A stretch of DNA of 35,292 nucleotides from a virus: the IMG/VR virus record IMGVR_UViG_3300044769_000137; one strand, 5' to 3'. This document shows positions 2,536 through 35,292 of this stretch, piece by piece. A program made the translations under genes and the position numbers. Numbering within the stretch: position 1 is the first letter of the stretch; each line of letters starts with the position of its first letter. The notes under the pieces were generated by a model. The model was not told where the DNA came from and did no database searches. It worked only from the letters and a program-made list of their open reading frames with translations.

Positions 2536-3230
2536 CTAGCCCCTCGTGCCGTTGGGCAGCGCGGCGGCGGCCAGGATGGCGGCCTGCTCCTCGGCGGTCT
2601 GGCGCTTCGTGCCGCCCTTACGGGGCACGAAGTCGTCCAGGCGGAAGGGACGGGCCCGCCGCTTGGGGTTGCGGTTCGCGTTGGCCAGGATGGTGGCGAT
2701 CAGGGCGAATCTCCGATCCTCGCGCTCCTGCTGCAGCTCGTAGCGGTGACTCAAGCCGAAGAACTCCCGCAGGGTCAGCCCCCACAGCTCGCTGGGCGTC
2801 AGTCCGAAGTCGTAGACGCCGACGCTCCAGACGCGATCCCATTCGACGCGGGATGCCGCCGCGCCGCCCGGTTCTGCGCCAAAGGGCGGGCGGCTGTACC
2901 GTTCCCTCCGGCCGCGGGCGCGGGCATGGCCACCCCGACGGCCTGGTCGATGGCCGCGCGGATCTGGCTGAAGTTCTCAATGTCCACGATCTCGTACACC
3001 TGCTCGAGGGTCAGGTCGGGATCCTCATGGCACAAGCCGGCCCACAGCATGGTGGTGACGCCCTCGAGGGTGCGCGACCACTCGGCGAGCGCCTCCTGCT
3101 GCTCGATCCCGATGCCAGACGCCTCCTCGATGCGGCGGAGCGCCCCCAGCGTGAAGCGCAGGTGGCGCGGGCGGTCGAGCTCGAGCCGCAGCCCGCGCAC
3201 CGGGTCGGCGCCCTGGACGATCTCGGTCAT
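2536..3230 (-). CDS. Tail assembly chaperone G-T fusion made by a -1 programmed ribosomal frameshift at 2880-2886
   Basis: The -1 frame is open from 2976 to 2536. After the slip it reads PFGAEPGGAAASRVEWDRVWSVGVYDFGLTPSELWGLTLREFFGLSHRYELQQEREDRRFALIATILANANRNPKRRARPFRLDDF..., which is clearly protein-like and gpT-like. The frame relation between 3230 and 2754 is exactly -1. Confidence 0.7.
2799..3230 (-). CDS. Tail assembly chaperone (gpG-like, 143 aa, zero-frame product)
   Basis: Lies between the major tail and tape measure genes. GGAGGAG RBS 6 nt before the ATG at 3230 (the track start at 3245 is a GTG inside the RBS). The translated tail after the slip site looks non-protein-like. Confidence 0.8.
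   Translation of the reverse strand: MTEIVQGADPVRGLRLELDRPRHLRFTLGALRRIEEASGIGIEQQEALAEWSRTLEGVTTMLWAGLCHEDPDLTLEQVYEIVDIENFSQIRAAIDQAVGVAMPAPAAGGNGTAARPLAQNRAARRHPASNGIASGASASTTSD
2880..2886 (-). promoter_or_regulatory. -1 frameshift slippery heptamer C CCT TTG (X XXY YYZ)
   Basis: Zero-frame codons are cgC CCT TTG. Re-pairing to CCC TTT enters the open gpT frame. It is located 27 codons before the G stop, as in lambda G/GT-type systems. Confidence 0.65.
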
Positions 3231-3409: not shown

Positions 3410-4147
3410 TTATGTGGTGGCCCGCACGATGTCGAGGGTGTACGTCTTGGTCGCCTTGCCCGACTCGGCCACCTCGATGAACGCCCGCGTGATGGAGCCC
3501 GCCGCCCCCAGCGCGACCGCGCCCGACGCCACGCCGGTGGCCACCGTGGTCCCGTTGACCGTGATGGTCCCCACCGCCGCAGTCGGCGTGATGGTGACCG
3601 ACGAGCTGCCGGTCGGGACGTTGACCACATAGCTGGTGGTCGACTGCGCCTTGGCCGGTACGGTGTCGGTTGCCGTGCTCACCACGAAGAAGGGCGTCGT
3701 GAGGCCGGCGGCGAAGGTCACCGTGAACAGGCCCTGGCCCGACAGGCGGATCTCGCCGTTGAACTCGAGGTTGGCGTCCATCTGCGGGTTGAATTTGGTG
3801 GTCTTGAGGAAGCCGCCCCCCTCCCACTGGCCCATGCCGTTGGGGAGCGTGATGCGGTACGGGTACTCCGCCTCGTACACGAACTCGCCCTGGGTCTCCT
3901 GGATCATGCCGAGCTGGGAGGGGTGCGCGACCCAGTAGCCGCTGAAGGTCATGGTGCCGGGGTCCAGCAGCCCCCGCGCGAAGCGGCGGAAGCCGCCGGG
4001 GCTGCCGTGGGTGGTGCGTTCCACGTCGTCGGCTTCCGGCCCGAACTCGCCGATCTCGTACAGCCCGGCGATGGTCTCGAAGCCGGTGCCCCGATCGACC
4101 TCGAGGATAGTTCCAAATCCCAGGATCGCGTCAACGTCCAGCGCCAT
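3410..4147 (-). CDS. Major tail (tube) protein with C-terminal cadherin-like/Ig-like beta-sandwich domain (245 aa)
   Basis: Lies immediately upstream of the chaperones. The N-terminal ~140 aa resemble TP901-1/phi13-type tube proteins. The C-terminus TSYVVNVPTGSSSVTITPTAAVGTITVNGTTVATGVASGAVALGAAGSITRAFIEVAESGKATKTYTLDIVR fits the cadherin-like beta-sandwich pattern. A GGAGG RBS overlaps the upstream stop. Confidence 0.8.
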   Translation of the reverse strand: MALDVDAILGFGTILEVDRGTGFETIAGLYEIGEFGPEADDVERTTHGSPGGFRRFARGLLDPGTMTFSGYWVAHPSQLGMIQETQGEFVYEAEYPYRITLPNGMGQWEGGGFLKTTKFNPQMDANLEFNGEIRLSGQGLFTVTFAAGLTTPFFVVSTATDTVPAKAQSTTSYVVNVPTGSSSVTITPTAAVGTITVNGTTVATGVASGAVALGAAGSITRAFIEVAESGKATKTYTLDIVRATT

Positions 4148-4615: not shown

Positions 4616-5091
4616 CGTCGCCACTCCCGCTCGACGCCCCGCTCCCAGTCGCGCGTGAGGTCCGGCATGGCGTCCTCGACCGCCTTCCGCCCGGCCAGCA
4701 GGAACTTCTTGCCCTTGGTGCCGCCGGTGCGGATCAGCTCCTGGAGCGCCCGCAGGTTGCCGCTGTAGCCGACGGCCCGGGCCCACCGCTCGAGCTTGCG
4801 GATCGAGACGCGATCGCCGGGCCTGCGCCCGCGGTCGATGGAGATGACGGTCGCCTTGAGCATGGCGGAATACACGGTGCTGCCCCGACGGTCGATGCCC
4901 ACGTTCCGCCCGATCGAGCGGACGGCCGTGCCGGTCCCGCCGTCGATCGCCAGGACCGACGCCTTCTGGCCGACGCGGGTGGCCTCCTCCATGATGGCCA
5001 GGAGCGGGGCCTCCACCAGGCGGGGGTTCTTGAGCTTGGCCGCCACGGCCTCCACCCCCTCGACCTTCACGCGCACGCGGGGCCGGGGCAT
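4612..5091 (-). CDS. HK97 gp10-like head-tail joining protein (159 aa)
   Basis: ATG at 5091 overlaps the upstream stop (ATGA). The MPRPRVRVKVEGVEAVAAKLKN... opening and the size are typical of the HK97 gp10 family. The 372-aa track ORF is an artefactual extension. Confidence 0.6.
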   Translation of the reverse strand: MPRPRVRVKVEGVEAVAAKLKNPRLVEAPLLAIMEEATRVGQKASVLAIDGGTGTAVRSIGRNVGIDRRGSTVYSAMLKATVISIDRGRRPGDRVSIRKLERWARAVGYSGNLRALQELIRTGGTKGKKFLLAGRKAVEDAMPDLTRDWERGVEREWRR

Positions 5092-5711
5092 CAGGCGATC
5101 CACCAGGTCTTGTACATCTCGACCAGGCGGTAGACGATGGCGATGGCCGACGGCGAGGTCTCGATCGCCTCCCCCAGCTCGGGAATGCGGCGGGTGGCGC
5201 GGGGGGTCTCCAGGCGCAGCAGCGCGGCGAGCTGGATGGTGCCGGCGTTGATAGCGGCCGGCACCTGGGGCCAGCCCCGCTGACAGACGATCGTCGCCCG
5301 CCCGCCGCCGAAGGCCGTGCCCGACGGATAGGCCGGGCGAATCTCGCGGTAGGGCTCCGGCTCCGGCTGGAGCGGCGCCCCGGTGGGCCACAGCTCGAGG
5401 CCGGCCGTGAGCAGCGGGGTCGCGGTGCCGAAAGCCACCGAGGTGACCGACACCAGCGGCGGGAGGGACGGGCGGGTGTTCCCGGCGTGGATGGCCAGGG
5501 GGGCGGGACGGCGCCAGTCCGGGCATGCCACGTCCACCACGATCGTCACGTCGGCCGCGTCCCGACTGAAGAACTCGCCCAGCTTGCCGTCCAGGTAGCG
5601 GCTGATGGCCACCAGATCGGTGGTGATGAGCGCGTCGTCGCCGTCGTCCCGATCGGGCGAGATGACCGCCCGGTACTCCTCGGCCGTGGCGTAGGGGTCG
5701 GCGATGGCCAT
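5091..5711 (-). CDS. Head-tail connector/adaptor, gp6-like (206 aa)
   Basis: ATG at 5711 overlaps the upstream stop (ATGA). N-terminus ADPYATAEEYRAVISPDRDDGDDALITTDLVAISRYLDGKLG and C-terminus WPQVPAAINAGTIQLAALLRLE match the gp6-like connector pattern. Confidence 0.6.
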   Translation of the reverse strand: MAIADPYATAEEYRAVISPDRDDGDDALITTDLVAISRYLDGKLGEFFSRDAADVTIVVDVACPDWRRPAPLAIHAGNTRPSLPPLVSVTSVAFGTATPLLTAGLELWPTGAPLQPEPEPYREIRPAYPSGTAFGGGRATIVCQRGWPQVPAAINAGTIQLAALLRLETPRATRRIPELGEAIETSPSAIAIVYRLVEMYKTWWIA

Positions 5712-6715
5712 CAGCGGCACCGCCGCACATAGCTCGGAATGCAGGTGACGCGGGTGGCCGTCGGGCTCGGGGTCAGGGTGGGAGGCGTGCCGTACACAAA
5801 GTCCCGATGCGCGCGGCCCTCCACGGTCAGCGAGCCGTTCGGGTTGAACAGCCAGGCCGCGTGCCCGTTCTGGTCGCAGGGCTGGTGAACGTTCCCGAAG
5901 TAGAGCGCCATCCGCACCCCGATCGCCGCAAAGGTCTGGAGGCCGGTGAGCGTGTAGTGGTAGCGGTCGGCTTCGCTCTGCCCGGCGGGCGGACAGCTCG
6001 GCTCGAACCGCTCGGCCCAGTGGCCCCATTCGGTCACGCTGATGCCCCACCCGTGCGCGTGAGCGAAGGCAGCGGCCTGCTGGGTCTGACTGGCGAGCTG
6101 CGGCTCGGTCGAGGGGAGGTCGTAGGAGGTCTGCGGGTAGAAGTGAAAGTTGAGGTCGTGCAGGAATGGGGAGGCGCCGAACTGCTGCTGATAGACGGTC
6201 AGGAACCGCTGGTACGCCTGCTGGCCCGTCACGATGTCGGGCGCACAGCAGTAGGCGGTCCAGCCGATCACCGAAGGCCCCACAATGCGGGCGGTCGGAT
6301 CAGCCGAGCGGATGGCGGCCACCTGTCCCGCGTACCACTCGACGAACGGCACCGCGTCGGCGTCGGTGGTCAGGCCGCCATCCTGCCAGCGCGAGTTATT
6401 CTCGTTGCCGATCAGCCAGGTCAGGCCCTTGGTCTGCATGGCGGCCACCTGCGGCTGCGTTACCGAGCGCCACGGGTAGCGCAGGAGTCGCACGCGGTGG
6501 GGCTCGCCGTTCGCCGTCGGCTCGGCGGTGTATTGCTGGTACACGGTGCCGCCGTAGGCGGCCAGGTCCTGCGTCGGGGAGTGGGTCCCGCCGAGGAAGT
6601 TCTCGCCGATGGCCATGGCCGCCCCGCGCACGCCCTGGGCGATCCCCACCCAGGCGAGCAGCCCCAGCGCGCAGGCGATGGCGAGGCCCCGAAACGCCCG
6701 CAGTTTTGGCGACAT
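5711..6715 (-). CDS. Secreted (or SAR-anchored) glycoside hydrolase, clan GH-A (beta/alpha)8-like (334 aa)
   Basis: N-terminus MSPKLRAFRGLAIACALGLLAWVGIAQG has a basic n-region followed by a Gly/Ala-rich hydrophobic segment. LIGNENN (acid/base Glu motif) and ISVTEWG (nucleophile Glu motif) are spaced as in GH5/GH39/Glyco_hydro_cc-type enzymes. The start overlaps the LamG gene stop (TAATG). Confidence 0.7.
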   Translation of the reverse strand: MSPKLRAFRGLAIACALGLLAWVGIAQGVRGAAMAIGENFLGGTHSPTQDLAAYGGTVYQQYTAEPTANGEPHRVRLLRYPWRSVTQPQVAAMQTKGLTWLIGNENNSRWQDGGLTTDADAVPFVEWYAGQVAAIRSADPTARIVGPSVIGWTAYCCAPDIVTGQQAYQRFLTVYQQQFGASPFLHDLNFHFYPQTSYDLPSTEPQLASQTQQAAAFAHAHGWGISVTEWGHWAERFEPSCPPAGQSEADRYHYTLTGLQTFAAIGVRMALYFGNVHQPCDQNGHAAWLFNPNGSLTVEGRAHRDFVYGTPPTLTPSPTATRVTCIPSYVRRCR

Positions 6716-7500
6716 TAGTACAACGCCCAGCGCGTGTTCAGGTAGGCCCGGACCAGCGTAGCGTCACCCGCCGACAGGACGGGGTTGTAGAGCAGGATCT
6801 CGGCCTCGTGGCCGGAGAGGGGCAGAAGCGCATCGCCCCGCAGCCCGACCGAGAGGACCTGCGGAGTCGGGAGGGTGATTCCGACCGTGCGAGTATCTCG
6901 GAGGGTCCCCTGTTGAAAAATCGTCCACCCATCACTGCCATCGACATGACCATCGAGGAGCTGGTAGCCGCCGCCCACCATCGCGGCCGCGGTCCCGACC
7001 ACGGTCCCCGGCCCAAACTCGCCCGCCCCCTGGTTAGAAGCAGTCGCCACGAGCGAAGGCTTCCCGGTGGCGGCCGGGCACCGGAGACTCCACCCGCCGC
7101 CCGCGCCACCGTAGCTCACCCACGTCGGATAACTCCCGACGGCCACCAGTTTGCCCACCACGAACAGCGAAAAGCCCGTATCGGCCATCGCCAGCGCCGC
7201 CAGGGCGAGGACATCATTCGACCCGTCAAAGAGGAGGCTGGGCAGCCCATTCTGCTCGGCCAATTTGAGGAGCGGTCGGAGCCCGGCCGTCGCCTGGCTG
7301 ACATGCCGCGCGTTGCCACTCTGGTCTGCCCATCCCCCCACCGGATCGCCATCGGCCACGGCCGGGGTGGTGCGGGCGGCGTCCTGGTAGACACCCACAT
7401 CGGCTTGGAGCCAGAATTGCAGGCCGGCGATGCTCGAGGGCAGGAACGCCGAACCGGACCCCGACCCGGCCCCGGCGCAGGCGAGCAGTGACGCGGGCAT
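6715..7500 (-). CDS. LamG / concanavalin-A-like lectin domain protein (261 aa)
   Basis: GLQFWLQADVGVYQD...DPVGGWADQSGNARHVSQ...RPLLKLAEQNGLPSLLFDGSNDVL... is the characteristic LamG (Laminin_G_3) opening seen in phage fibre proteins. GAGGTGAG RBS. Paralogous to the C-terminus of the 1144-aa protein. Confidence 0.7.
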   Translation of the reverse strand: MPASLLACAGAGSGSGSAFLPSSIAGLQFWLQADVGVYQDAARTTPAVADGDPVGGWADQSGNARHVSQATAGLRPLLKLAEQNGLPSLLFDGSNDVLALAALAMADTGFSLFVVGKLVAVGSYPTWVSYGGAGGGWSLRCPAATGKPSLVATASNQGAGEFGPGTVVGTAAAMVGGGYQLLDGHVDGSDGWTIFQQGTLRDTRTVGITLPTPQVLSVGLRGDALLPLSGHEAEILLYNPVLSAGDATLVRAYLNTRWALY

Positions 7501-7509
7501 CAGCTCACC

Positions 7510-7857
7510 TCACGAGTAGAAGAGATTGATGTTCAGGTCGTCGGCCGCCACCGCCGCCGCGCTGCTGTCGGCCAGGCCGGTGACGGTCGTGATGGCCAGG
7601 CCGGTGCCGAACTGGATACCGGCCGGGGCGAACACGTTCGCCAGCGCCCCCCCCGGCAGCACCACCGTGAAGTACACGCCCGCGCCCGCCGTGGGGGTGG
7701 TGGCCGCGTTGTGGAACACCACCTTACGCGCGGCCGCGTTGCTGTTGTAGATGGCCCAGCCGTACAGCACGGCCGGCGCGGCCTTGACCACCTGGGCGTT
7801 GACGGTGGCGAGGGACTCGAGGTGGTAGACGCTGAACCCGTTATCGGAGACTGGCAT
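7510..7857 (-). CDS. Hypothetical virion-module protein (115 aa)
   Basis: ATG at 7857 shares one nt with the upstream TGA (TGATG). The product MPVSDNGFSVYHLESLATVNAQVVK... looks beta-rich. The upstream part of the 243-aa track ORF is Arg/Gly-rich junk. Confidence 0.6.
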   Translation of the reverse strand: MPVSDNGFSVYHLESLATVNAQVVKAAPAVLYGWAIYNSNAAARKVVFHNAATTPTAGAGVYFTVVLPGGALANVFAPAGIQFGTGLAITTVTGLADSSAAAVAADDLNINLFYS

Positions 7858-8156
7858 CAGCCCCCTCGGGCCTTGTTGCTGGTCTGCTCGGGCGTGACGG
7901 CCTTGGTCGCCGCGCCCTGGCGGGCCTTCGTTTCCTCGGTCTCTGGCCCCGCCTCCTCCGTCTCGGCCGGGGGCGGCGCGGGCGCGTTCGGGTCGGCCGG
8001 GGGCGGCAGCTGGCCCGCATAGGGCGCCGCCTCCTCCTCGGTCAGGGTGCCGCCCTCCCCGACCAGCAGCGCGGCCGCCTCCGGGGAATCCTCCGGCACG
8101 ATCTTCGTCCCGTCCGCGTTGCGGTACAGCCGCTCGGGACTCACGTAGTTCGGCAT
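7857..8156 (-). CDS. Hypothetical Pro/Glu/Ala-rich protein (99 aa)
   Basis: AGGAGG lies 6 nt upstream of the ATG at 8156 (MPNYVSPERLYRNADGTKIV...). The C-terminal half is low-complexity and acidic. Confidence 0.55.
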   Translation of the reverse strand: MPNYVSPERLYRNADGTKIVPEDSPEAAALLVGEGGTLTEEEAAPYAGQLPPPADPNAPAPPPAETEEAGPETEETKARQGAATKAVTPEQTSNKARGG

Positions 8157-8170
8157 GGTGCCCTCCTGAC

Positions 8171-8695
8171 CTATGTCTGCGTGCCCACCTTCGTCCACGT
8201 CGGCGCGTAGGTGGTCCCGGTGTTGATGTACAGAATCCCATTCGTGATGTCGGTCAGCTGGGCGCCGATGGCCGCGCCTCGGCCGGTGGCGTCCACGCCC
8301 GGGGTGGTCTCCGCCACCGCCAGGGTGGGGGCCGTGCCGGTCAGGGCGCTGGTGGCAGTCAGGGTCGAGACGGCCATGCGCGCCAGGGTGCCGCCGTAGG
8401 TGAGGGTGACGGTGCCGATACCGGCGGTCAGGGTGCCGGCGGTGGCCACGATGTCCCCGGCCGTGCCGATCGCGTCGAGCGCGGCGTTGATGGCGGCCAG
8501 GAGCGTGGCGTTCACGGCCGACCAGGTGATGGCCGCCGTGTTACGGCCCTCGCGGGTGAAAGTGAAGGTCCCGGCGGTCGGGGTCCCGCCAATGGTGAGG
8601 GTCTGCACCTCGTTGGTGCCGGCCGAGGGCGCCCCCGCGGACTGATAGCCGCTGAGGCCGCCCGGCATGATGACGCCGCCGCTGATGACTGGCAT
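8171..8695 (-). CDS. Head decoration / head-fibre-like protein (174 aa)
   Basis: Lies immediately after the major capsid gene with an AGGAGGAGG RBS. The NEVQTLTIGGTPTAGTFTFT...AITWSAVNATLLAAINAALDAI motif recurs in capsid-accessory proteins of high-GC phages, as far as I recall. Assignment is positional. Confidence 0.5.
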   Translation of the reverse strand: MPVISGGVIMPGGLSGYQSAGAPSAGTNEVQTLTIGGTPTAGTFTFTREGRNTAAITWSAVNATLLAAINAALDAIGTAGDIVATAGTLTAGIGTVTLTYGGTLARMAVSTLTATSALTGTAPTLAVAETTPGVDATGRGAAIGAQLTDITNGILYINTGTTYAPTWTKVGTQT

Positions 8696-8724
8696 GGACC
8701 TCCTCCTGAGCTTCCGCTAATCGG

Positions 8725-9987
8725 CTAGATCCCGGTAATGGTGCAGAAGGCCGCCGCCCGGTAGATTTCCAGGCTCAGCCGTTCCTCAGCTCGGACCAGC
8801 ACCTTGTTGTAGGCAAAGAAGGTGTCGTGCTCGGTCGAGACGTCGATCTGGATGCCCTGCCGTCGACTGATGTGCGAATACAGCGCGAAGTCGCCCAGGA
8901 TGGCGGTGCCCTCAGTGGCAGCCGGAGTGACGACCACCGGCATCCCCCACATGCGCTCGATCCCCTCGTCGGTGGGGCTGCCGAAGATGTAGATGCCGTC
9001 GGCGGTCCGCAGCAATCGAATGTCCTGCCAGTCGTTGGGGTGGATCGCCATGCCGTTGGGGTCGGCGTAGCCGGTGTAACGCACCTTGGTCATGCCCTTG
9101 AACACCGCATCGGGGGTGGGGTCCGCCCCCTTCGCCTGGGTCTGAATGCTTGGCTTGTTGTAAAAGCCGGTCAGGTGGGGCGAGGTGCCGGAGCCGGTCA
9201 GGAGCTCGACCTCCTCCGCCAGCTGCACCATGACAGTCAGGCGATTGTCGATCAAGCTCTGCATGGCCGGCACGTCGTCGAGCTGCTGGTTGGTGACCGG
9301 CAGCGTGGTGGCGATCACCTCCACCGGCACCAGGCGCTCGGTGAAGGCCAGCGCGGATTCCGGCTTGGCCGCGTTCTCCGCGACGGCGGCCGCGTTGTTG
9401 GTGAAGGTGGTCTCCTCCATATACCGAATGGCGGAGAGCGTCGTCGGGTCTTGCGGGATCAGGTCGGCCACCATGGGGCGACGCTGGGCCGACAGCACCA
9501 CGCGCGGGATGCGGGTCGCCTCCGGTGCGAAGCCGGCGGTCAGGGTCATCACGGTTTTCATGTCGACGTCGGGGAGCGAGACCCCGAAGTGCGCCATGGC
9601 GGTGCCCTTCTCCTGCAGGTAGGCCGGATGCTCGGTGAAGAGCGTGCCGAGCGACTTGGCCGCCCGCTCGTGGAGGTCGCCGCCGGGCGCCCCACTGCCC
9701 GCCTCCGGCCGGGGGTGGACGAAGTGCTGGCCGGGCTCGTGGAGCCACCGCTGGCGCTCGGCGTTCTTCTCCCGCAGGTCCTCCGCCTCCCGCAGCGTGT
9801 CCAGCTGCTTCCCGAGGTCGGCGAGCTCGTCGTTCCGCCGTTTGATCTCGGCGGCCTTGGTGGCGGTATCGCCGTCGACGTAGCTCACCTTCGTCAGGTC
9901 AAGCTCCGGACCGGCCTCCTGGAAGATGCGCTCCAGCTGGTCCGATTTGGTGATGATCTCCCCGCGCAGCTCGACGAGTGTAGGCAT
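8725..9987 (-). CDS. Major capsid protein, HK97 fold, with N-terminal coiled-coil delta/scaffold domain (420 aa)
   Basis: Follows the prohead protease. The N-terminal ~100 aa are coiled-coil (EIKRRNDELADLGKQLDTLREAEDLREKNAERQRW). The C-terminal body is typical of the HK97 family (...IRLLRTADGIYIFGSPTDEG...GMPVVVT...). AGGAGG RBS. Confidence 0.9.
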   Translation of the reverse strand: MPTLVELRGEIITKSDQLERIFQEAGPELDLTKVSYVDGDTATKAAEIKRRNDELADLGKQLDTLREAEDLREKNAERQRWLHEPGQHFVHPRPEAGSGAPGGDLHERAAKSLGTLFTEHPAYLQEKGTAMAHFGVSLPDVDMKTVMTLTAGFAPEATRIPRVVLSAQRRPMVADLIPQDPTTLSAIRYMEETTFTNNAAAVAENAAKPESALAFTERLVPVEVIATTLPVTNQQLDDVPAMQSLIDNRLTVMVQLAEEVELLTGSGTSPHLTGFYNKPSIQTQAKGADPTPDAVFKGMTKVRYTGYADPNGMAIHPNDWQDIRLLRTADGIYIFGSPTDEGIERMWGMPVVVTPAATEGTAILGDFALYSHISRRQGIQIDVSTEHDTFFAYNKVLVRAEERLSLEIYRAAAFCTITGI

Positions 9988-20857: not shown

Positions 20858-22233
20858 ATCGACGTCGCCATCCGACGCGCGGCCGCCTCGATGTACTGCT
20901 GCGACTGGTCGTAGCCGATCGCCTGGCGCCCCAGCCGGTGGGCTACGACCACCGTCGTGCCGCTCCCCACGAACGGGTCGAGCACCGTATCGCCAGGAAA
21001 CGAAAAGAGCGTGATGAGCCGTTGGGGGAGCTCCTCCGGGAACGGAGCGGGGTGACCTTCCCACGGGTAGGACTCGCCCCGGAAGGACCACAGCCCATTG
21101 GTCCAGTCCAGCCAGTTCTCGCGGTCGATGCAGGCCGGTCCGTCCCGGTGCCACTCCTCGCGGTAGAACACCGCGATCATCTCCACCCGCGCGATCACGT
21201 GCGGGGCCGCCGCCGAGTCGACCGACCCGCGCGCCGTCGATTTGTTGATGTTGTTCTTGTTCCAAATGATCGTTGTCCGGTAGCTCCAGCCAGCCTCCAG
21301 CGCCGCGTCCACGGCCTGGGCGTAGCAGGGCCGCTCCACGGGCTCCGTCGTGTCGAGCGGCACATTGAGCGCCAGGCGCGCGCCACGCTTGCCCACCCGG
21401 TAAGCTTCCCGGAGGGAGTCAACCAGGAGCGCCCGCCATCCCCCGGCCTCGTCGCTCATCCCGTGGTAGGAAATGCCAACTCCATAGGGCGGGCTCGTGA
21501 CGATCAGGTGCACGGTCTCGTCGTCGAGCGGGAGATGGCAGGCGTCGGCTACCTCGAGCGTGACGGGGAGCAGGGCGCGGGCCACCAACGGTTTCGGCTC
21601 GGCGGCTTTCCTCGCGGCTTCCTGTTTGCGAACCACTTTGACCGCATCGGCCAGGGGCAACGACCCGTCATATACCTGCTTCGCCAGCTCCGGCGCGTGG
21701 TCTCGCACCTTCTTCGCGTCACGCATTTTCTGGCGACTCACTCCGAGTAACCTGGCCGCCCGCTCGGTTGCGTCCGGTCGATGCCGCACGATCTTCGGCG
21801 ATGGTTGCTCCCCCGCAATCCCAATGTCCGCCGGTATGGCGGACATTGGGATTGCGGGCTGCGAACGCTGATGATTGGCCTCTGCCACGGCTCGCCGCCG
21901 ATGCTCCGCGGCTTCATCGGCCAGGGCTCGCTCAATATTGAGGTTGACCACCATCATTTGGTCGTCGCTCAGCTGGCGGCGCCGAAGATTCACACTCACG
22001 ACAAACTGCACCAGCGAGCCCTGGCCGTGCCAGTCGCGGAACAACGGAGCCACGCCGCACTCGAGGCACGCGCGATACCGATGGCGACCGTCGATGATCT
22101 GCCCCTCGTACAACCAGATGGGGTCGATCAGGCCGTGGGCGCGGATGTCCTCCACCAGCGCCGCGTATTCATCCGGGCGCAGCGCAGGGAAAAGCTCGGC
22201 GACCGGGTGGAAGGCGAGGGGCTCGTTGGTCAT
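20854..22233 (-). CDS. ParB-like N-terminal domain fused to a beta-class N6A/N4C DNA methyltransferase (459 aa)
   Basis: ParBc signature IIDGRHRYRAC. Motif IV is IVTSPPYG, followed later by motif I LDPFVGSGTT (the IV -> I order defines beta class). ATG overlaps the upstream stop (ATGA). Confidence 0.9.
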   Translation of the reverse strand: MTNEPLAFHPVAELFPALRPDEYAALVEDIRAHGLIDPIWLYEGQIIDGRHRYRACLECGVAPLFRDWHGQGSLVQFVVSVNLRRRQLSDDQMMVVNLNIERALADEAAEHRRRAVAEANHQRSQPAIPMSAIPADIGIAGEQPSPKIVRHRPDATERAARLLGVSRQKMRDAKKVRDHAPELAKQVYDGSLPLADAVKVVRKQEAARKAAEPKPLVARALLPVTLEVADACHLPLDDETVHLIVTSPPYGVGISYHGMSDEAGGWRALLVDSLREAYRVGKRGARLALNVPLDTTEPVERPCYAQAVDAALEAGWSYRTTIIWNKNNINKSTARGSVDSAAAPHVIARVEMIAVFYREEWHRDGPACIDRENWLDWTNGLWSFRGESYPWEGHPAPFPEELPQRLITLFSFPGDTVLDPFVGSGTTVVVAHRLGRQAIGYDQSQQYIEAAARRMATSI

Positions 22234-23678
22234 CGCCCCACCGCCGGCGCGGCCTTCGCCTGCGCCGCCTTGGCCTCCGCCCGCAGGGTCGTGAAGGCGT
22301 CCTCGAGGTCTGCGATGCGAATGGGCAGGATCAGCGGCGGCTGGGGGTGGAGCTCATCCGCCGTGCGCTCCAGCAGCGTCAGCCAGCCCCGCCAGCGCTG
22401 ATCCTGGGGATCGCTGATGGAGGGCTCGCCCAGGAGGTCCGTCGCCTCCTCCGGTTCGGGCTCCGGCTCCCACTCAGGTCCTGGCTCCTCCTCGTCGTCC
22501 GGCTGCCACACCAGCGCCGCCGCCGCCGCCAGGAGCCCGGCCGCGTCGGCCTCGGTCGCCCGCCCCAGGAAGGTGGCCAACGAGTCGGTCACCAGCTCCG
22601 GCCGCGCCGCATACCGCTCTCGCGTGTAGGCGTGCACCAGCTCGTGGCGGGCGAGCGGCGTCTCCAGCCGCGTGCCCCGCACCGCCGCGAACCAGCGCTG
22701 GCGATAGTGCTGCGGATCACAGGGCGGATCGCCCCGCGTGAGGTTCTCCCGCTGGCGCTCGGTCGGCTCCTCGACCCAGGCCTCGTCGAGGTCCAGGTCC
22801 GGCCCCTCGAGCTCCAGGATCTCCATGGTCGGCGAGGGGAGCTGCGCCACCTTCAGGCTCGCCCCCTCCGCCAGCGCCGCCGAGAGCAGCCCCCGGAAGT
22901 TCGGGCTGGCGAGCTGGATGCTGGCCGGCGGTCGGAAGGCCAGCGTCCACACCATGATGTCGCGCTTCCGCCCGTTGGGGCCGCTCACCTCGCGCGGCGT
23001 GAGCTGCAGCTCGAACGGGATGCCCGCCAGCCGCCCGCCCGAGAAATCCCGCTGGATGTGCTGCAGGGTGCCCACCAAGCTCTGATACGAGTGGCGGCTG
23101 GTGAACCGCAGCCGATACCACTGGCCCACCCCGTCCGGAAAGTCGATGATGGGCTGCGTCCCCTCCCAGTGGGCCAGGGTGAAGAACACCGAGACCTCCA
23201 CCTTGCAGGTCCGCAGGATCGCGTCGTAGCCCGGGTCCGTCGAGCGGTAGACCTTGCGCTCCACCTGCTCGTTCTTCTCCTCGCCCCGCACCACGATCTC
23301 GGTCAGGCCGTCCGCGTCCCCGTAGACCTGCAGCGAGGACGCCGAGTGCCGCGTGAAACGGGCCTGCAGAATGTCCCCCAGCCGGTTCGACGCGAAGGCG
23401 ATACACAGCGAGCGGTACGCGGTGGCCTCCAGCGCGCGCAGCAGCCCCGGGGCCTGGCTGTGCTCGTCGTGCAGGCTGATGCGCCCGTCGCGGTTCATCA
23501 CGGGATAGCCCTGCTCGTTCTTGCCGCCGGCGCTGATGGTGGCCAGCCAGTTGGCCCTCGGCTCCGCGAGCCGCATGCCTCCCGGCGCGTACACGTCCAG
23601 CATCACGTACTCGTCGTCGTGCCCCCGGACCTCGGGGTCGACGAGCTCGCCGGTGTCGTGATCCAGAATGCGCGTCAT
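22230..23678 (-). CDS. Hypothetical early protein (482 aa), function not recognised
   Basis: Long protein-like ORF. ATG at 23678 overlaps the upstream stop (ATGA). The C-terminal third is acidic and low-complexity. Its position suggests a recombination or replication role, but I cannot support that. Confidence 0.7.
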   Translation of the reverse strand: MTRILDHDTGELVDPEVRGHDDEYVMLDVYAPGGMRLAEPRANWLATISAGGKNEQGYPVMNRDGRISLHDEHSQAPGLLRALEATAYRSLCIAFASNRLGDILQARFTRHSASSLQVYGDADGLTEIVVRGEEKNEQVERKVYRSTDPGYDAILRTCKVEVSVFFTLAHWEGTQPIIDFPDGVGQWYRLRFTSRHSYQSLVGTLQHIQRDFSGGRLAGIPFELQLTPREVSGPNGRKRDIMVWTLAFRPPASIQLASPNFRGLLSAALAEGASLKVAQLPSPTMEILELEGPDLDLDEAWVEEPTERQRENLTRGDPPCDPQHYRQRWFAAVRGTRLETPLARHELVHAYTRERYAARPELVTDSLATFLGRATEADAAGLLAAAAALVWQPDDEEEPGPEWEPEPEPEEATDLLGEPSISDPQDQRWRGWLTLLERTADELHPQPPLILPIRIADLEDAFTTLRAEAKAAQAKAAPAVGR

Positions 23679-24220: not shown

Positions 24221-24499
24221 TCAGGTCCGATCGGTGCACCCGCTCACCCGCGACGGCTCGTAGAACGGCGGCTGCCCCTGGACGTCGACGCGCCAGCGCC
24301 GCCAGGGCGGGATGGGGTAGTCGCACCTCGAGCAAAAGCCCTTGACCGAGATAAAGCCCTGCGTCGCGCCACACGCTAAACAGGCCGGGTGATGGAGGCC
24401 GTAGGCGGTGGTGCGGTGCTTGTGGCCGCGCGCCGCCAGCTGCCGAGGAATGTCGGTCAGCTCGAGGTCGAACGTGTCAGGTGACACCGGGCGGCTCAT
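24221..24499 (-). CDS. Zinc-ribbon protein (92 aa)
   Basis: ATG at 24499 overlaps the upstream stop (ATGA). Carries CLACG...CSRCD. Confidence 0.55.
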   Translation of the reverse strand: MSRPVSPDTFDLELTDIPRQLAARGHKHRTTAYGLHHPACLACGATQGFISVKGFCSRCDYPIPPWRRWRVDVQGQPPFYEPSRVSGCTDRT

Positions 24500-24834
24500 G
24501 GCCACCACTCCACTTCCCGGTAGCGCGAACCCCAGTTGATGGCGTCGTCGCAGTCGGGCATCCAGATGTCCACGTGCTGGCCCAGCACCCCTCCGCCGGT
24601 GTCCAGCGCGATAAAGGTGCGACTGGTGCCGGCAATGGCGACCTCCGAGTACAGAGGGATCACCTTCGGGTCGACTGCCACCGCGCCCCAGCGCGTGTAC
24701 TCGCCGGTCCGCATGGTCCCGGTCAGACAAAAAGCCGTGATCCGAAACGTGCCACTGCCCGAGGGCGCCTGCGCGGCGGCCGGCGGCAGACTGGTAGCAG
24801 CCAGCAGCACACAGGACACCAGAACCCGCGTCAC
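24496..24834 (-). CDS. Secreted 3D-domain (RlpA/MltA-like double-psi beta-barrel) protein (112 aa)
   Basis: GTG at 24834 overlaps the upstream stop (GTGA) and yields the signal peptide VTRVLVSCVLLAATSLPPAAAQA. FRITAFCLTGTMRTGEYTRWGAVAVDPKVIPLYSEVAI...ALDTGGGVLGQHVDIWM is the 3D-domain pattern. Confidence 0.75.
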   Translation of the reverse strand: MTRVLVSCVLLAATSLPPAAAQAPSGSGTFRITAFCLTGTMRTGEYTRWGAVAVDPKVIPLYSEVAIAGTSRTFIALDTGGGVLGQHVDIWMPDCDDAINWGSRYREVEWWP

Positions 24835-25043
24835 GACCGAGCTCCGCTGGCCTGTTGCACCAGCTGCGCGCACTCCGTGGCCAGCCGCGCGGCGTACCGC
24901 AAACGAAAGTGCTGCGCTTCGCTCAGCTCCGCGTGCTCGAGCAGCTGCGCCAGCGTGTACTCCAGGTGGCCGGCCAGGATCTCCGCATCGACGAGCGCGG
25001 GGACCGCCGCCTGAGCGGTCGAGGAGCCCTCCTCGGCCTTCAC
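24831..25043 (-). CDS. Hypothetical helical protein (70 aa)
   Basis: GTG at 25043 overlaps the upstream stop (GTGA). Confidence 0.5.
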   Translation of the reverse strand: MKAEEGSSTAQAAVPALVDAEILAGHLEYTLAQLLEHAELSEAQHFRLRYAARLATECAQLVQQASGARS

Positions 25044-26885: not shown

Positions 26886-27725
26886 ATGCACACCCGAATC
26901 ATTGTTCTCGCATTACTGAGTTTCCTGTGGGTCGCCCCGGTGGCCGCCCAGCCCGCCGCGGTCCCCGACCAGGAGGCGATCGTCACGAACGTCGTCGACG
27001 GTGACACGATCGACGTCCAGCTCGCCGACGGCAGCACCTACCGCGTGCGCTACATCGGCATCGACACGCCGGAGACGGTGGCGCCCGGCCGCCCGGTCGC
27101 GTGCTGGGGAGCGGAAGCGTCCGCGCGTAATCGGGAGCTGGTGCTGGGGCAGACGGTCTACCTCGAGCGGGACACCTCCGAGACCGATCGGTTCGGCCGC
27201 CTGGTCCGCTATGTGTGGCTGGGCGACGAGCTCGTCGAGTCGATCCTGCTCACCGAAGGCCAGGCCCGCGCGTTCCCCTTCCGACCAGACACCGCTCGAG
27301 CTGAGGAGTTTGCCGCACTCGAGCAGGGAGCCCGCGAGCAAAGCGTAGGTCTATGGGGCGCCTGTGAGGGTCTGCCGCCGGTCGGCGAGGGCGAGGTCCT
27401 CCCGGATGCGCCGCCAGCCGCCACCGCGACCACGGCGCCCCTGCCGACGCCGATCCCGACGGCGACCAGGAGCGCACCCACCGTCGCACCCGTTCCGACC
27501 CCGACCTCCCCGCCCTCTTCATCCGGGACACGGATCGGCACCCGCACGGGCGAGCCTCTGCGCTTCGACCCGAATGGCCCCGACCGGGATTGCAGCGACT
27601 TCCGCACCTGGGCAGAGGCGCAGGACTTTTACGAGGCGGCCGGTGGTCCCGCCAGCGATCGGCACCGCCTGGACGCGAATAACGACGGCATCGCCTGCGA
27701 GACGCTTCCGGGCGTGCGCCGCTAA
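26886..27725 (+). CDS. Secreted staphylococcal-nuclease (SNase/thermonuclease) homologue with C-terminal Excalibur Ca-binding domain (279 aa)
   Basis: Signal peptide MHTRIIVLALLSFLWVAPVAAQP. SNase core VVDGDTIDVQL...YRVRYIGIDTPE...RFGRLVRYVW. Pro/Thr linker. Excalibur motif DRDCSDFRTWAEAQDFYEAAGGPASDRHRLDANNDGIACE. Confidence 0.9.
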   Translation: MHTRIIVLALLSFLWVAPVAAQPAAVPDQEAIVTNVVDGDTIDVQLADGSTYRVRYIGIDTPETVAPGRPVACWGAEASARNRELVLGQTVYLERDTSETDRFGRLVRYVWLGDELVESILLTEGQARAFPFRPDTARAEEFAALEQGAREQSVGLWGACEGLPPVGEGEVLPDAPPAATATTAPLPTPIPTATRSAPTVAPVPTPTSPPSSSGTRIGTRTGEPLRFDPNGPDRDCSDFRTWAEAQDFYEAAGGPASDRHRLDANNDGIACETLPGVRR

Positions 27726-27775: not shown

Positions 27776-27903
27776 CGCGCCTGCTCCAGGCACGCGCTAA
27801 GCCCAATGGACGCGAGTACCCGAAGGGTATCGGGTTGACATGCAAACCGCAAATGCGAGGATCGTAGGCACGAATCCAGCAGGTAACCGGGGGAGTGCGT
27901 TTA

Positions 27904-29158: not shown

Positions 29159-30007
29159 TCACGCCGAGGGCTCCGTCACCTCGCGGGCGAAGGCGTTTAA
29201 GTCAATGGGACTGCTCGAATATTGATGCCCCTTGACCATCTCACGCGGCCAGTAGGGGCTCGGCGTGTCGAGCTGCTCGAGCCCGTCATACGCCGCCAGC
29301 CACACCGGGTACTCGACGAGGCGCCCAATCTGGCCGTGCCAGTAGGCGTCGACAAACCAATTTCCGGTGTAAATACCCGAGCGAATCCCCCGTTGGTCAC
29401 AAGCCGCACAGGCCGCTTCCGCCTCGTCGATCGTGGGGGCCGTGCCCTGGTACGTTTCCAGATCGATCCACAAGAGCGGCAGCGTTACCCCAGCCCGCTC
29501 GGCCACCTCGAGCGCCTGCTGGACCTGCTGAGCGGGGCTGATCCCGTGGTAGAGCCATACGTAGGCCCCGACACTGCATCCGTTGGCGAGTGCACTGTGC
29601 ATCTGCTGGATGGTGCAGGACTGCGGAACACTCTCAATTTCCTGGTACGCCTTCACTACCACATGGGAGGGTCGGAACTGCTGGATGTAGGCGGTCAGGT
29701 CCCGTACCTGGTGCGAGCTCACATCCATCCCCCGCACGACCCCGGTGAGGGGCTCCGGTGGCTCCGGTAGATCGGGCGGGGCCAACTCAAAAGGGTGGGT
29801 CTTACTCGGCCAGACCTCGGGCGCGGGGTTCTCGTTCCCCGGAGCCACGCAGATGATCTCCTCGAGGGACCCGTAGTCGTACCAGGCTTTGCGGACCTGT
29901 CCCAGCTTGTCCGTACCACTGCCTGCCTTCATGATCGTAGGACCGCTCCAGCGGACCCCTAGCGAGTCTCCCAGGCGCTCTTCGGCCTGCTCCAGGGTCT
30001 CACTCAT
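29159..30007 (-). CDS. Endolysin: GH25 muramidase domain with an unknown ~95-aa N-terminal domain (282 aa)
   Basis: GMDVSSHQ, HVVVKAY, LWIDLE (DxE) and WLAAY fit Glyco_hydro_25. It follows the small TM genes. GGGAGG lies 5 nt before the ATG at 30007. Confidence 0.85.
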   Translation of the reverse strand: MSETLEQAEERLGDSLGVRWSGPTIMKAGSGTDKLGQVRKAWYDYGSLEEIICVAPGNENPAPEVWPSKTHPFELAPPDLPEPPEPLTGVVRGMDVSSHQVRDLTAYIQQFRPSHVVVKAYQEIESVPQSCTIQQMHSALANGCSVGAYVWLYHGISPAQQVQQALEVAERAGVTLPLLWIDLETYQGTAPTIDEAEAACAACDQRGIRSGIYTGNWFVDAYWHGQIGRLVEYPVWLAAYDGLEQLDTPSPYWPREMVKGHQYSSSPIDLNAFAREVTEPSA

Positions 30008-30055
30008 GGCCACCTCCCAAAAATAGAGCGGTTGCGCTCCATTTTCCGCTCCTCC

Positions 30056-30169
30056 TCACCGCCAGCCCGCCAGCCGAAACGCCAGATACCACAGCGCCCC
30101 GAACACGCTGAGCACACCGACCGCCGCCAGCCCCAGCTCGAGGCCGTCGCGCCACTCCCGCCAGGTCAT
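30056..30169 (-). CDS. Small single-TM protein (37 aa), lysis-cassette member
   Basis: MTWREWRDGLELGLAAVGVLSVFGALWYLAFRLAGWR. The ATG overlaps the upstream stop (ATGA). Confidence 0.5.
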   Translation of the reverse strand: MTWREWRDGLELGLAAVGVLSVFGALWYLAFRLAGWR

Positions 30170-30303
30170 CCGACCAACAGCGAGGCCGACAGGAACGCCA
30201 CGGCCCCCGCCAGGAGCTGCGAGCCGTAGGGTAACGGAGGAAGGGCAGCCAGAATTGCGAGGATGCAACTTACGATCAGGAACGCTACGCGCAGGTTCTC
30301 CAC
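30166..30303 (-). CDS. Small two-TM protein (45 aa), lysis-cassette member
   Basis: VENLRVAFLIVSCILAILAALPPLPYGSQLLAGAVAFLSASLLVG. GGAGG lies 6 nt before the GTG at 30303. Confidence 0.5.
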   Translation of the reverse strand: MENLRVAFLIVSCILAILAALPPLPYGSQLLAGAVAFLSASLLVG

Positions 30304-30314
30304 TGTTCGCCTCC

Positions 30315-30431
30315 CTACCTCATGCCCGCCCACAGATCGAGCAGCACGCCTAAGAGCAGCACCAGGGCCAGCATCCCCAGGCTGATAATCACCACCTGCC
30401 AGAGCGCGCGCCGCCACACGTCGTCGATCAT
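30315..30431 (-). CDS. Small single-TM protein (38 aa), lysis-cassette member
   Basis: MIDDVWRRALWQVVIISLGMLALVLLLGVLLDLWAGMR. The ATG overlaps the upstream stop (ATGA). Confidence 0.5.
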   Translation of the reverse strand: MIDDVWRRALWQVVIISLGMLALVLLLGVLLDLWAGMR

Positions 30432-30718
30432 TCGTGGGGCTCCTCCAGCGGCGGCCCCGGCGGCTTGGGCTCCACCACCGGCGGCGTGGCCTTGCGCGGC
30501 GGCTTGCGAATCGAGGGCAGCGCCGCCGCCACCACGCCGATCATGGCAGTAACCACGGCGATGATGCCCAGCCACTGGCGGGTAATCCCGATGGCGTCCG
30601 CCTGGCTAGACGCCACCCCTAAGCCTGCCAGGATGGCCGCACAGCCGACGGCGGTCCAGTAGTAAACCGCATAGCTCCGCGAGCCCCGATCCTCGTCTCC
30701 GTTCGTCTCCTGCGCCAT
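30428..30718 (-). CDS. Holin-like two-TM protein with Pro-rich C-terminal tail (96 aa)
   Basis: TM segments YAVYYWTAVGCAAILAGLGV and WLGIIAVVTAMIGVVAAAL. AGGAGG RBS. First of four membrane ORFs upstream of the endolysin. Confidence 0.65.
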   Translation of the reverse strand: MAQETNGDEDRGSRSYAVYYWTAVGCAAILAGLGVASSQADAIGITRQWLGIIAVVTAMIGVVAAALPSIRKPPRKATPPVVEPKPPGPPLEEPHE

Positions 30719-35253: not shown

Positions 35254-35292
35254 GCTAGCGCCCCGCCCCGGTGGTGGACCCGACGAGTGGGG
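35166..35292. repeat. Terminal direct repeat, copy B (identical to 1-127)
   Basis: Direct comparison of the two ends. Confidence 0.95.

Follow-up and report, generated by a model that had tools for sequence, protein, structure and literature searches.

Conserved head-module genes and a putative exchangeable cargo cassette with a predicted exported glycoside hydrolase between the capsid and adaptor genes of a temperate siphophage

The region of about 3 kb between the major capsid and head-tail adaptor genes (5711–8695) was analysed in IMG/VR virus record IMGVR_UViG_3300044769_000137, a stretch of 35,292 nucleotides (nt) that is called the window throughout. The region contained five genes on the minus strand, named here after the length of their products in amino acids (aa): p174, p99, p115, p261 and p334. 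These were interpreted as two regular head-module genes, p174 and p99, joined to a horizontally exchanged cassette of three cargo genes, which would be expressed late and of which p334 would encode an exported glycanase; taken as a whole, this interpretation has about an even chance of being correct. On comparison with related phages, the variable cargo proper comprises p115, p261 and p334, running from 7857 to 5711. The coordinates of the genes and of the features discussed below are collected in Table 1.

Table 1. Positions of genes and protein features in the window.
Feature	Coordinates	Strand	Description and evidence
Major capsid protein	8725..9987	-	HK97 fold, 420 aa; upstream boundary; PF05065 E = 1e-41; phrog_10 E = 2e-62
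p174	8171..8695	-	Open reading frame; putative capsid decoration protein, first gene after capsid
NEVQ/Bxb1 CTE-like domain inserted in p174	8291..8617	-	~aa 27-135; phmmer, profile
Candidate C-terminal element of p174, ...LTDITNGILYINTGTTYAPTWTKVGTQT	8174..8275	-	aa 141-174; 73.5% identity to MW202444
p99	7857..8156	-	Open reading frame; ATG start with GGAGGG Shine-Dalgarno sequence; head-module gene
p115	7510..7857	-	Open reading frame; predicted jelly-roll; first gene of variable cargo
p261	6715..7500	-	Open reading frame; LamG/concanavalin-A-like
p334	5711..6715	-	Open reading frame; predicted exported-type clan GH-A glycoside hydrolase
Predicted signal peptide of p334	6617..6715	-	aa 1-33; three K/R, 17-aa hydrophobic core, small residues ...GAA|MA
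Asn104-Glu105 of p334, predicted acid/base pair	6401..6406	-	Invariant 9/9; end of model strand 99-104 (beta-4)
Glu229 of p334 (TEW motif), predicted nucleophile	6029..6031	-	Invariant 9/9; model strand 224-230 (beta-7)
Thr/Pro-rich linker and C-terminal Cys-x7-Cys loop of p334	5714..5785	-	Loop CIPSYVRRC at 5714-5740, aa 325-333
Head-tail adaptor	5091..5711	-	206 aa; downstream boundary; phrog_442 E = 1.7e-5
Lysis cassette	29159..30718	-	Downstream of tail genes, usual place; PF01183 match and hydrophobicity scan

The initial annotation had placed five open reading frames (ORFs) between capsid and connector, and all of these were confirmed in position, strand and product size. The same products (174, 99, 115, 261 and 334 aa) were called independently on a metagenome contig of identical sequence, homologues of all five were found elsewhere, and their guanine plus cytosine (GC) content at third codon positions was typical of coding sequence. 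Therefore, these are real genes, and not chance ORFs in a genome of 69% GC. A longer form of p99 with a GTG start is unlikely. The capsid gene was separated from p174 by a 29-nt spacer with AGGAGGA, p174 from p99 by a 14-nt spacer with AGGAGGG, and p115 from p261 by 9 nt. The remaining three of the six junctions overlapped, p99/p115 (by 1 nt) and p334/adaptor as TGATG, and p261/p334 as TAATG; both motifs had been reported before, together with ATGA, which proved to be an error because no 4-nt overlap is present. A scan of the coding strand from the capsid gene to the adaptor gene (5711–8725), using consensus sequences of the E. coli type that may not suit the host, gave neither promoter-like nor terminator-like sites. 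Therefore, co-transcription with the virion genes is the simplest reading. GC content and composition of the region were the same as in the rest of the genome, giving no compositional sign of recent acquisition.

The initial annotation had assumed that the connector gene normally follows the capsid gene directly. This does not hold for any of the relatives examined, all of which had between two and seven genes in this gap: two in MW202444 (119 and 76 aa) and in StopSmel (87 and 64 aa), three in Mwe-Yong1, four in phage contig L014 and in a contig from a Dehalococcoidia metagenome-assembled genome (MAG; L023), and seven in L010. The five genes had also been regarded as accessory throughout. This description was appropriate for p115, p261 and p334, which varied among relatives, while p174 and p99 belonged to conserved families kept at that position, and relatives routinely carry these two genes. 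The capsid-adaptor gap is a recombination hot spot, where display domains, lectin folds, fibre-like proteins and hydrolases vary among related phages.

The identity of the cargo genes to their homologues was discordant with that of the genes beside them. Compared with the window, L014 showed 26% identity in the capsid protein, 68% in the LamG protein, 57% in the glycoside hydrolase, 77% in the adaptor and 95% in the next gene. The values for L010 were 42% for the capsid protein and 67% for the hydrolase, with no LamG gene and an unrelated adaptor, while L013 carried a hydrolase with 78% identity, an unrelated adaptor, no LamG gene and no recognisable capsid gene on the contig. The adaptor of L023 was 37% identical. 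The LamG gene occurred again in L015 (57% identity) among unrelated neighbours, standing where its sister contig L013 had a fibre-like protein and the hydrolase, and the hydrolase of L012 was found at another place, upstream of HNH and terminase genes. The cassette was lacking in MW202444, StopSmel and L023, and the hydrolase was also lacking in L015. Cassette genes were present in L010, L013, L014 and L015 with different neighbours, and the hydrolase and LamG genes were common to phages whose head genes were unrelated or very divergent. This showed that both move as cassettes that are not tied to head or neck genes, which fits cargo better than parts that need a structural partner.

Some further details of the slot were recorded. 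Where the LamG gene was absent, the slot was filled by Gly/Thr/Ser-rich fibre-like proteins of 311–321 aa (L010 8328–9263; L013 2871–3836), which had a C-terminal motif in common, GFYGV..VARQT.ATG....VITALQNLGL.SQT. The protein upstream of the L012 hydrolase ended in ...VPVYSDGTNWIVL, a fibre-type ending. In L014, the LamG gene was followed by a separate hydrophobic ORF of 31 aa (2976–3071; MRAGRGLALAGLLLCGWLL...), and then by the hydrolase gene; this ORF resembled the signal peptide of p334 in the window (M..RAFRGLAIACALGLLAW...), and the L014 hydrolase itself had another type of signal peptide (MRPRYLLGPLLAL...). The LamG/hydrolase junction of L014 looks like a recombination scar. Proteins of 129 to 131 aa at the matching position in L010, L013 and L015 were considered as divergent forms of p115, and rejected at an hhalign probability below 1%.

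The product of p334 had eight close homologues, all of them on phage contigs in the contexts examined, and there was no match among 50,697 isolate phage records. Its AlphaFold2 model was a (beta/alpha)8 barrel in which strands alternate with helices. All Foldseek matches in the PDB at E <= 1e-4 belonged to clan GH-A (GH5, GH79 and GH128); GH44 appeared among the weaker matches (from E = 2.2e-4 down), as did a few GH18 chitinases (from E = 2.8e-4), and GH128 structures gave the highest target-normalised template modelling (TM) scores, 0.49–0.59. The protein itself did not match PF11790 (Glyco_hydro_cc), which corresponds to GH128, at E <= 0.1. Distant cellular relatives, with ~32% identity over half the domain, were obtained by scanning metagenomes and did match PF11790 (E = 2.6e-12 and 1.5e-7), and hhalign related the p334 family to a cellular PF11790 protein with a probability of 98.7% (E = 4.3e-16) and with the catalytic motifs aligned; the link of p334 to PF11790 is thus transitive, through these cellular relatives. 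Asn104-Glu105 was aligned with GNE of the PF11790 protein, and the TEW motif of Glu229 with TEF, while H191 and Y193, at the end of model strand beta-6, were also invariant in all nine family members. The initial annotation of p334 as a glycoside hydrolase with an N-terminal signal was therefore borne out, and p334 is predicted to be a clan GH-A glycosidase related to PF11790/GH128, with its predicted catalytic residues intact.

A GH44 assignment was rejected. The match to Pfam GH44 (PF12891) was partial (E = 6.6e-6, 26.7 bits against a cut-off of 25.1) and confined to a 63-residue fragment, residues 133–195, at profile positions 155–222 of 223; PDB chains of GH44 gave E = 0.066 over the same 70 residues, and the model lacked the C-terminal beta-sandwich domain. 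Beyond the barrel, the Thr/Pro-rich linker ranged from 10 to ~80 aa among homologues (including P0001–P0007), and the terminal motif C[IVP][PT][ST][FY][VI][RK][RK]C was kept in eight of nine; this loop is too short for a sortase- or exosortase-type signal. Among the relatives, L031 encoded a protein of 621 aa with a Pro/Thr-rich linker of ~250 aa. In L029 (3987–8678), the cellular PF11790 protein that hhalign had related to p334 was encoded between genes for a MurJ-type flippase and a DUF4012 protein. These neighbours suggest that the enzyme acts on a polysaccharide of the envelope, and the L031 protein likewise hints at such a role in its source bacterium.

All nine members of the p334 family had an N-terminus with one to three K/R, a hydrophobic core (KD15 1.7–3.2) and an AxA-like end, and the AlphaFold2 model of p334 placed residues 3–33 in a single helix outside the barrel. 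The mature part contained six cysteines, as it did in most family members. These features suggest that p334 is exported and that its signal peptide may be cleaved; export and a non-virion status are the best-supported step of the model. Tat export was rejected, as there was no twin-arginine motif. Putative lipoprotein signals in p334 (LAIAC) and p261 (SLLAC) were also rejected, the cysteines not being conserved in homologues and p261 having no charged or hydrophobic leader. The capsids of tailed phages assemble in the cytoplasm, and a capsid role for an exported p334 is therefore very unlikely.

This bears on the two readings that had been offered in the initial annotation, a capsid-displayed apparatus that binds and degrades glycans, or late-expressed secreted factors within the structural operon. 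Under the first of these, p174, p115 and p261 would bind sugars and p334 would be a head-borne depolymerase. The five genes do stand in the late operon directly after the capsid gene with coupled junctions, the domain within p174 is part of solved Bxb1 virion proteins (the capsid C-terminus and gp23), and LamG homologues are labelled virion structural protein in PHROG. Met34 of p334 (6614–6616), directly after the predicted signal peptide and invariant in all nine members, could start a signal-less form; however, no strong Shine-Dalgarno sequence was found upstream of this codon. The role proposed for the hydrolase was contradicted by the Sec-type signal peptide of every family member, mostly accompanied by the even set of six cysteines. 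In addition, p334 was 67–78% identical where the capsids were 42% identical or unrecognisable, and the L012 copy lay away from head genes; therefore, p334 does not co-evolve with a capsid partner. The virion depolymerases known so far are tailspikes that lack signal peptides. The displayed apparatus is very improbable as a whole, and capsid display is plausible for p174 only, while a late-expressed secreted factor in the structural operon fits p334 well. Identification of p334 as a tailspike or fibre depolymerase was likewise rejected, the protein being a TIM barrel with a signal peptide.

An exported hydrolase might also serve lysis itself, p334 being a second, Sec-exported enzyme that lysis requires, with p115 and p261 as unrelated hitch-hikers. 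It would then degrade the envelope in the manner of signal-peptide or SAR endolysins, or of mycobacteriophage LysB. Late expression, the export signal and the intact predicted catalytic residues are compatible with this, as are the cellular relatives that adjoin envelope-polysaccharide genes; the candidate endolysin groups reported for uncultured phages in PMC5968864 include Glyco_hydro_cc (PF11790) domains. However, a complete lysis cassette was present in its usual place after the tail genes. This consisted of a GH25 endolysin (muramidase; 29159–30013, PF01183 E = 7.7e-12) without a signal peptide, and a holin-like protein of 96 aa (30428–30718) with two membrane-spanning-like segments in a hydrophobicity scan. 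Therefore, p334 is not the only or principal lysin. No clan GH-A or GH128-type enzyme is known to cleave peptidoglycan. The gene was also missing from the capsid/neck relatives MW202444, StopSmel, L015 and L023, and hence appears dispensable for the lineage. A strict lysis enzyme is rather unlikely for these reasons, although it largely overlaps with the interpretation of p334 as exported cargo, differing only in whether the enzyme is essential. The narrower proposal that p334 is the endolysin of the phage, or a signal-arrest-release (SAR) endolysin, was rejected given the separate holin-like and GH25 genes and a fold that is not muralytic.

Variable presence among relatives and horizontal mobility are equally features of morons, and the cargo could consist of lysogenic-conversion genes that the prophage expresses for its host, for glycan foraging or biofilm remodelling, with no lytic role. 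The phage is temperate and has an integrase, and it encodes other secreted, moron-like proteins. Two further proteins with signal peptides were observed, an SNase-Excalibur nuclease (26886–27725, plus strand) and a 3D-domain (RlpA-like) protein (24496–24873, minus strand); the nuclease gene adjoins the integrase gene (27895–28845) and resembles a classical secreted moron. The cassette, however, lies inside the late operon and not beside the integrase like other secreted genes, and its stop and start codons overlap with those of virion genes upstream and downstream. No promoter-like or terminator-like signal of the E. coli type, which may not be that of the host, flanks it, and its composition equals that of the rest of the genome. 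On this evidence, morons without a lytic function are quite improbable.

The two genes nearest the capsid behaved differently from the cargo. The first ~25 residues of p174 (MPVISGG...) and its last 34 were common to the 119-aa post-capsid protein of MW202444 (phmmer E = 5.5e-16; Table 1), and a homologue of 263 aa occurred at the same place in L010. With a weaker member in L014, these formed a positional family that kept its adjacency to the capsid gene. Y156, N158, T159, P165 and G171 were invariant in alignment A4, and the C-terminal segment is a candidate capsid-binding or oligomerisation element. Among isolate phage genomes, only this C-terminal tail was matched. Between the shared ends, p174 had an insert with the motif NEVQTLTIGG...GTFTFT, which was missing from the MW202444 protein and present in two copies in L010. 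The insert matched chain Ma of PDB 9d93, a Bxb1 tail-tip structure, that is, the three repeats of gp23 (phmmer E = 7.9e-10); a profile of four p174 homologues reached E = 9.1e-17 with gp23 and E = 0.0054 with residues 318–376 of the Bxb1 capsid protein (9d9w). There was also a match to the C-terminal part of phrog_10909, 'major tail protein' (E = 3.6e-4).

The earlier description of p174 as a decoration-like NEVQ protein was therefore supported, in that its middle is homologous to the domains resembling Bxb1 C-terminal extensions (CTE). In work of 2025 by Freeman and colleagues, these extensions reportedly lie exposed on both capsid and tail tube and are immunodominant. The distal tail protein of Bxb1 carries three CTE-like domains, according to PMC13252515. 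The protein p174 had no cysteines and no hydrophobic N-terminus. The interpretation that fits best is a protein of the decoration type that would have acquired a display domain, and its position and conserved termini suggest that it binds the capsid.

Homologues of p99 were found in the gap of five other phages: L010 (98 aa, E = 3e-11), L023 (102 aa, E = 3.6e-10), Mwe-Yong1 (E = 6.6e-7), MW202444 (76 aa, E = 1e-4) and StopSmel (64 aa, aligned by eye). In three of the five (MW202444, StopSmel and L023), the homologue was directly upstream of the adaptor gene. The protein consists of a conserved, ordered N-terminal part of ~50 aa followed by a charged Pro/Glu-rich tail, and it had no match by sequence in Pfam, PHROG, NCBIfam or the PDB. 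A role in head completion or as a packaging accessory can be guessed from its position. The frame of p115 is open upstream across p99, as an ORF of 243 aa, and this prompted the idea of a p99-p115 fusion by frameshifting. The idea was rejected: p99 homologues stood alone in the five other phages, the N-terminal extensions of p115 relatives were unlike p99, and short stand-alone homologues of p115 were common.

The p261 family comprised 93 homologues, which were stand-alone proteins of ~240–265 aa encoded at varied places in phage structural regions. Although p261 itself had no Pfam match at E <= 0.1, PF13385 (Laminin_G_3) was matched by 23 of 57 aligned homologues (best E = 1.7e-14), and comparison of the family profile with the PDB gave 4qvs (E = 1.7e-6), neurexin LNS domains and 5hon. 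There was also a match to phrog_10356, 'virion structural protein' (E = 7.9e-15). The LamG fold assigned earlier is consequently upheld at the level of the family, through homologues and family profile, and p261 would be a member by that route. No papers on capsid decoration by LamG proteins were found in the literature.

The AlphaFold2 model of p115 had eight strands in a jelly-roll beta-sandwich (mean predicted local distance difference test score, pLDDT, 94.2; predicted TM score, pTM, 0.86), agreeing with the earlier description of a beta-rich protein. An exhaustive search identified 3,847 representative clusters (50% identity) at E <= 0.001. Nearly always, the domain formed the C-terminal ~113 residues of proteins that were 130–1100 aa long, and identity across clusters was strikingly high (50–68%). 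Stand-alone homologues of 115–198 aa occurred on phage-size contigs, often in structural regions, and in BFVD the model superposed on uncharacterised phage proteins with TM up to 0.9. No Pfam, PHROG or NCBIfam family and no PDB entry was matched by sequence; a fold search of the PDB retrieved generic jelly-rolls only (plant-virus coats, Ena pili, the HFTV1 turret and CBM36; best E = 4.7e-3). Neither p115 nor p261 had an export signal, and the four proteins of the region besides p334 had zero to two cysteines and no hydrophobic N-terminus. The best guess for p115 is a lectin or knob.

The domain architecture of this family raised a different possibility, in which p115 and p261 are parts of a fibre attached to the head or neck, with p115 as its oligomerisation or assembly domain, so that the region would be an adsorption module and the hydrolase its passenger. 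Some relatives of p115 (P0102–P0288) had fibre-like repeats (FWQATQPVSG, SGTWTVQPGNT), and the domain is nearly always the C-terminal, very conserved end of such proteins. Further, the LamG homologue of L014 has three fibre-type repeats at its N-terminus, the equivalent position in L010 and L013 is taken by the fibre-like proteins described above, and a p115-domain protein is encoded directly upstream of the capsid gene in phage S-SRP01. However, signal peptides were present in four of twelve p115 relatives read (several of the four being short, 138–182 aa), which would be at odds with an assembly domain of the virion. The region also lacks a gene for a fibre shaft, both p115 and p261 being single globular domains, and no structural match of p115 to known fibre tips or chaperones was obtained. 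A fibre module is considered doubtful.

The interpretation as head-module genes plus cargo can be set out as a sequence of steps. The product of p174 would decorate the head and display its CTE-like domain between the conserved N- and C-terminal segments, and p99 would be a conserved head-module protein, possibly concerned with head completion. The p115-p261-p334 cassette would have been inserted at the boundary of head and neck modules and be expressed within the late operon. The product of p334 would be made late and exported by Sec through its N-terminal signal peptide, with disulfides forming outside the cytoplasm; there it would hydrolyse a host envelope or matrix glycan by the retaining mechanism of clan GH-A, in which Glu105 would act as acid/base and Glu229 would be the nucleophile. 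The phage might benefit through escape of its progeny across a non-peptidoglycan polysaccharide layer, through destruction of glycan that traps released virions, or both, and p334 would play an accessory part beside the separate holin-GH25 cassette for lysis. The products of p115 and p261 would stay in the cytoplasm, as lectin-type accessories that are on the virion surface or become active after lysis; their presumed roles are the weakest part of the model.

Several points weigh against this interpretation. The negative result for promoters relied on an E. coli-type consensus and is weak evidence for co-transcription. The virion association of p174, p115 and p261 is suggested by position, by homology to displayed domains and by PHROG annotations as virion structural protein. 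The 50–68% identity of p115 relatives is unusual for a receptor-binding tip, and hence an assembly or oligomerisation role is possible. With regard to p334, its Gly/Ala-rich N-terminal segment could be an uncleaved signal anchor, and an internal start at Met34 may give a cytoplasmic isoform. The model of p334 was of moderate confidence (mean pLDDT 65), with TM ~0.4 to its PDB matches, and the protein reached no Pfam family over its full length, so that its substrate cannot be named. Lastly, the only hint of a host was the sole match in the genome collection, the contig of the Dehalococcoidia MAG, with a capsid protein 41% identical; host assignment is uncertain.

The wider genome was that of a temperate siphophage by gene content, including an integrase. 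The ends of the window were identical over a direct overlap of 127 bp (1–127 = 35166–35292), and the genome is therefore circularly assembled and complete at 35,165 bp. The minus strand encoded the small terminase, an HNH protein, the large terminase, portal, S78 protease and HK97-type capsid protein, then the 3-kb region, and after it the adaptor, neck proteins, a tail-tube protein with an Ig-like end, chaperones, tape measure and distal tail proteins. Elsewhere in the genome were the tyrosine integrase, repressor-type helix-turn-helix proteins, a DNA methylase and the secreted SNase-Excalibur nuclease. No tRNA genes were found in the genome. Identical copies of the region were present on several soil-type metagenome contigs; the closest capsid protein among the 50,697 phage records was that of MW202444, at 44% identity, and no cultured phage was close.

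Three observations concerned genes away from the region. The tail module spanned the ends of the window, with the tape measure at 344–2530 and a protein of 1144 aa at 31819–35253. The major tail protein (3410–4147, minus strand) had a C-terminal Ig-like extension, with a weak Cadherin-like Pfam match on the identical gene of L001, and the tail tube, too, is likely to display an accessory domain. A protein of 482 aa (22230–23678, minus strand) matched the Gp3-like recombination-directionality-factor family PF18897 (E = 9e-8), the model of which has only 191 positions.

Each element has analogues among known systems, and the region does not reveal a biological system of a new kind. In its middle part, p174 is homologous in sequence to the Bxb1 CTE domains (9d93 and 9d9w; Freeman et al. 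2025), which are reported to be solvent-exposed decorations of the capsid, tail-tube and distal-tail (gp23) proteins. In Bxb1 the CTE is fused to the end of a capsid or tail protein, whereas here it is inserted in a separate, small post-capsid protein. T4 Hoc, lambda gpD and phage L Dec (reviewed by Dedeo et al. 2020) similarly represent small, non-essential, capsid-adjacent and variable genes with a beta-rich displayed domain, but p174 had no sequence or structural match to these. The product of p334 was like the clan GH-A beta-1,3-glucanases of GH128/PF11790 in its (beta/alpha)8 fold, with NE on beta-4, Glu on beta-7 and a core of ~270 aa, while its Thr/Pro linker and terminal Cys loop are not found in GH128 enzymes.

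Exported phage lysis enzymes include Lys44 of Oenococcus phage fOg44, the SAR endolysins P1 Lyz and phage 21 R, and mycobacteriophage LysB. As is predicted for p334, these reach the envelope through host Sec, or attack a non-peptidoglycan layer in support of lysis; however, they are muramidases, transglycosylases and esterases of the lysis cassette, and p334 is a predicted clan GH-A enzyme encoded at the head/neck boundary. The N-terminal export segment of SAR and signal-peptide endolysins was present in p334, in a Gly/Ala-rich version in the window, but their peptidoglycan-cleaving domain was not. The glycosidases of exopolysaccharide clusters (PslG, BcsZ and the GH44 enzyme EpsB) are secreted or periplasmic proteins of clan GH-A type that act on the surface polysaccharide of their own cell; p334 resembled them distantly (a weak match to NCBIfam NF041873), and the phage gene stands outside any biosynthetic cluster.

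Two phages provided partial parallels to the gene arrangement. In Rhodococcus phage REQ2 (L045 5587–7529), gp13 carries at its C-terminus a LamG domain that belongs to the p261 family. The gene overlaps, stop with start codon, that of gp14, which is an alpha/beta hydrolase and lacks a signal peptide; unlike in the window, this second instance of a LamG-hydrolase pair within a virion operon is located between tail-tube and chaperone genes. In cyanophage KBS-S-2A, a LamG protein of the p261 family (CPKG_00053) is encoded between the adaptor and head-closure genes, in the neck module. Both were 27–49% identical to p261, over parts only. The cassette shares variable presence and mobility with morons, but a promoter and terminator of its own were not found with the E. 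coli-type consensus.

What appears unusual is a predicted Sec-exported, non-muralytic clan GH-A enzyme whose gene moves as a cassette at the head/neck boundary, the apparent insertion of a display domain into a separate post-capsid protein, and the very large, undescribed family of p115. A bolder proposal was also formulated, although it is distinctly unlikely to be correct in all its parts together. According to this, the p334 family would be phage-specific 'exit glycanases', a mobile head/neck cassette in phages that infect monoderm soil bacteria with a polysaccharide coat, possibly Chloroflexota; the lectins p115 and LamG would be borne by the virion and recognise the same glycan, so that matched binding and cutting functions would be divided between the particle and the infected cell, and p115 would represent an unrecognised domain family (~3,800 clusters at 50% identity) of phage fibres and secreted bacterial proteins, with a conserved ligand.

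If the interpretation of the region as head-module genes plus exported cargo is true, then a Sec-exported, non-muralytic glycanase would be exchangeable cargo of the virion operon in phages whose soil-bacterial hosts are poorly studied. This would be a route of envelope or matrix degradation distinct from both tailspike depolymerases and classical endolysins, and such cassettes would be a source of new glycan-active enzymes. The analysis of p115 has brought to light a very large, uncharacterised family of jelly-roll domains, which deserves a structure and a ligand.

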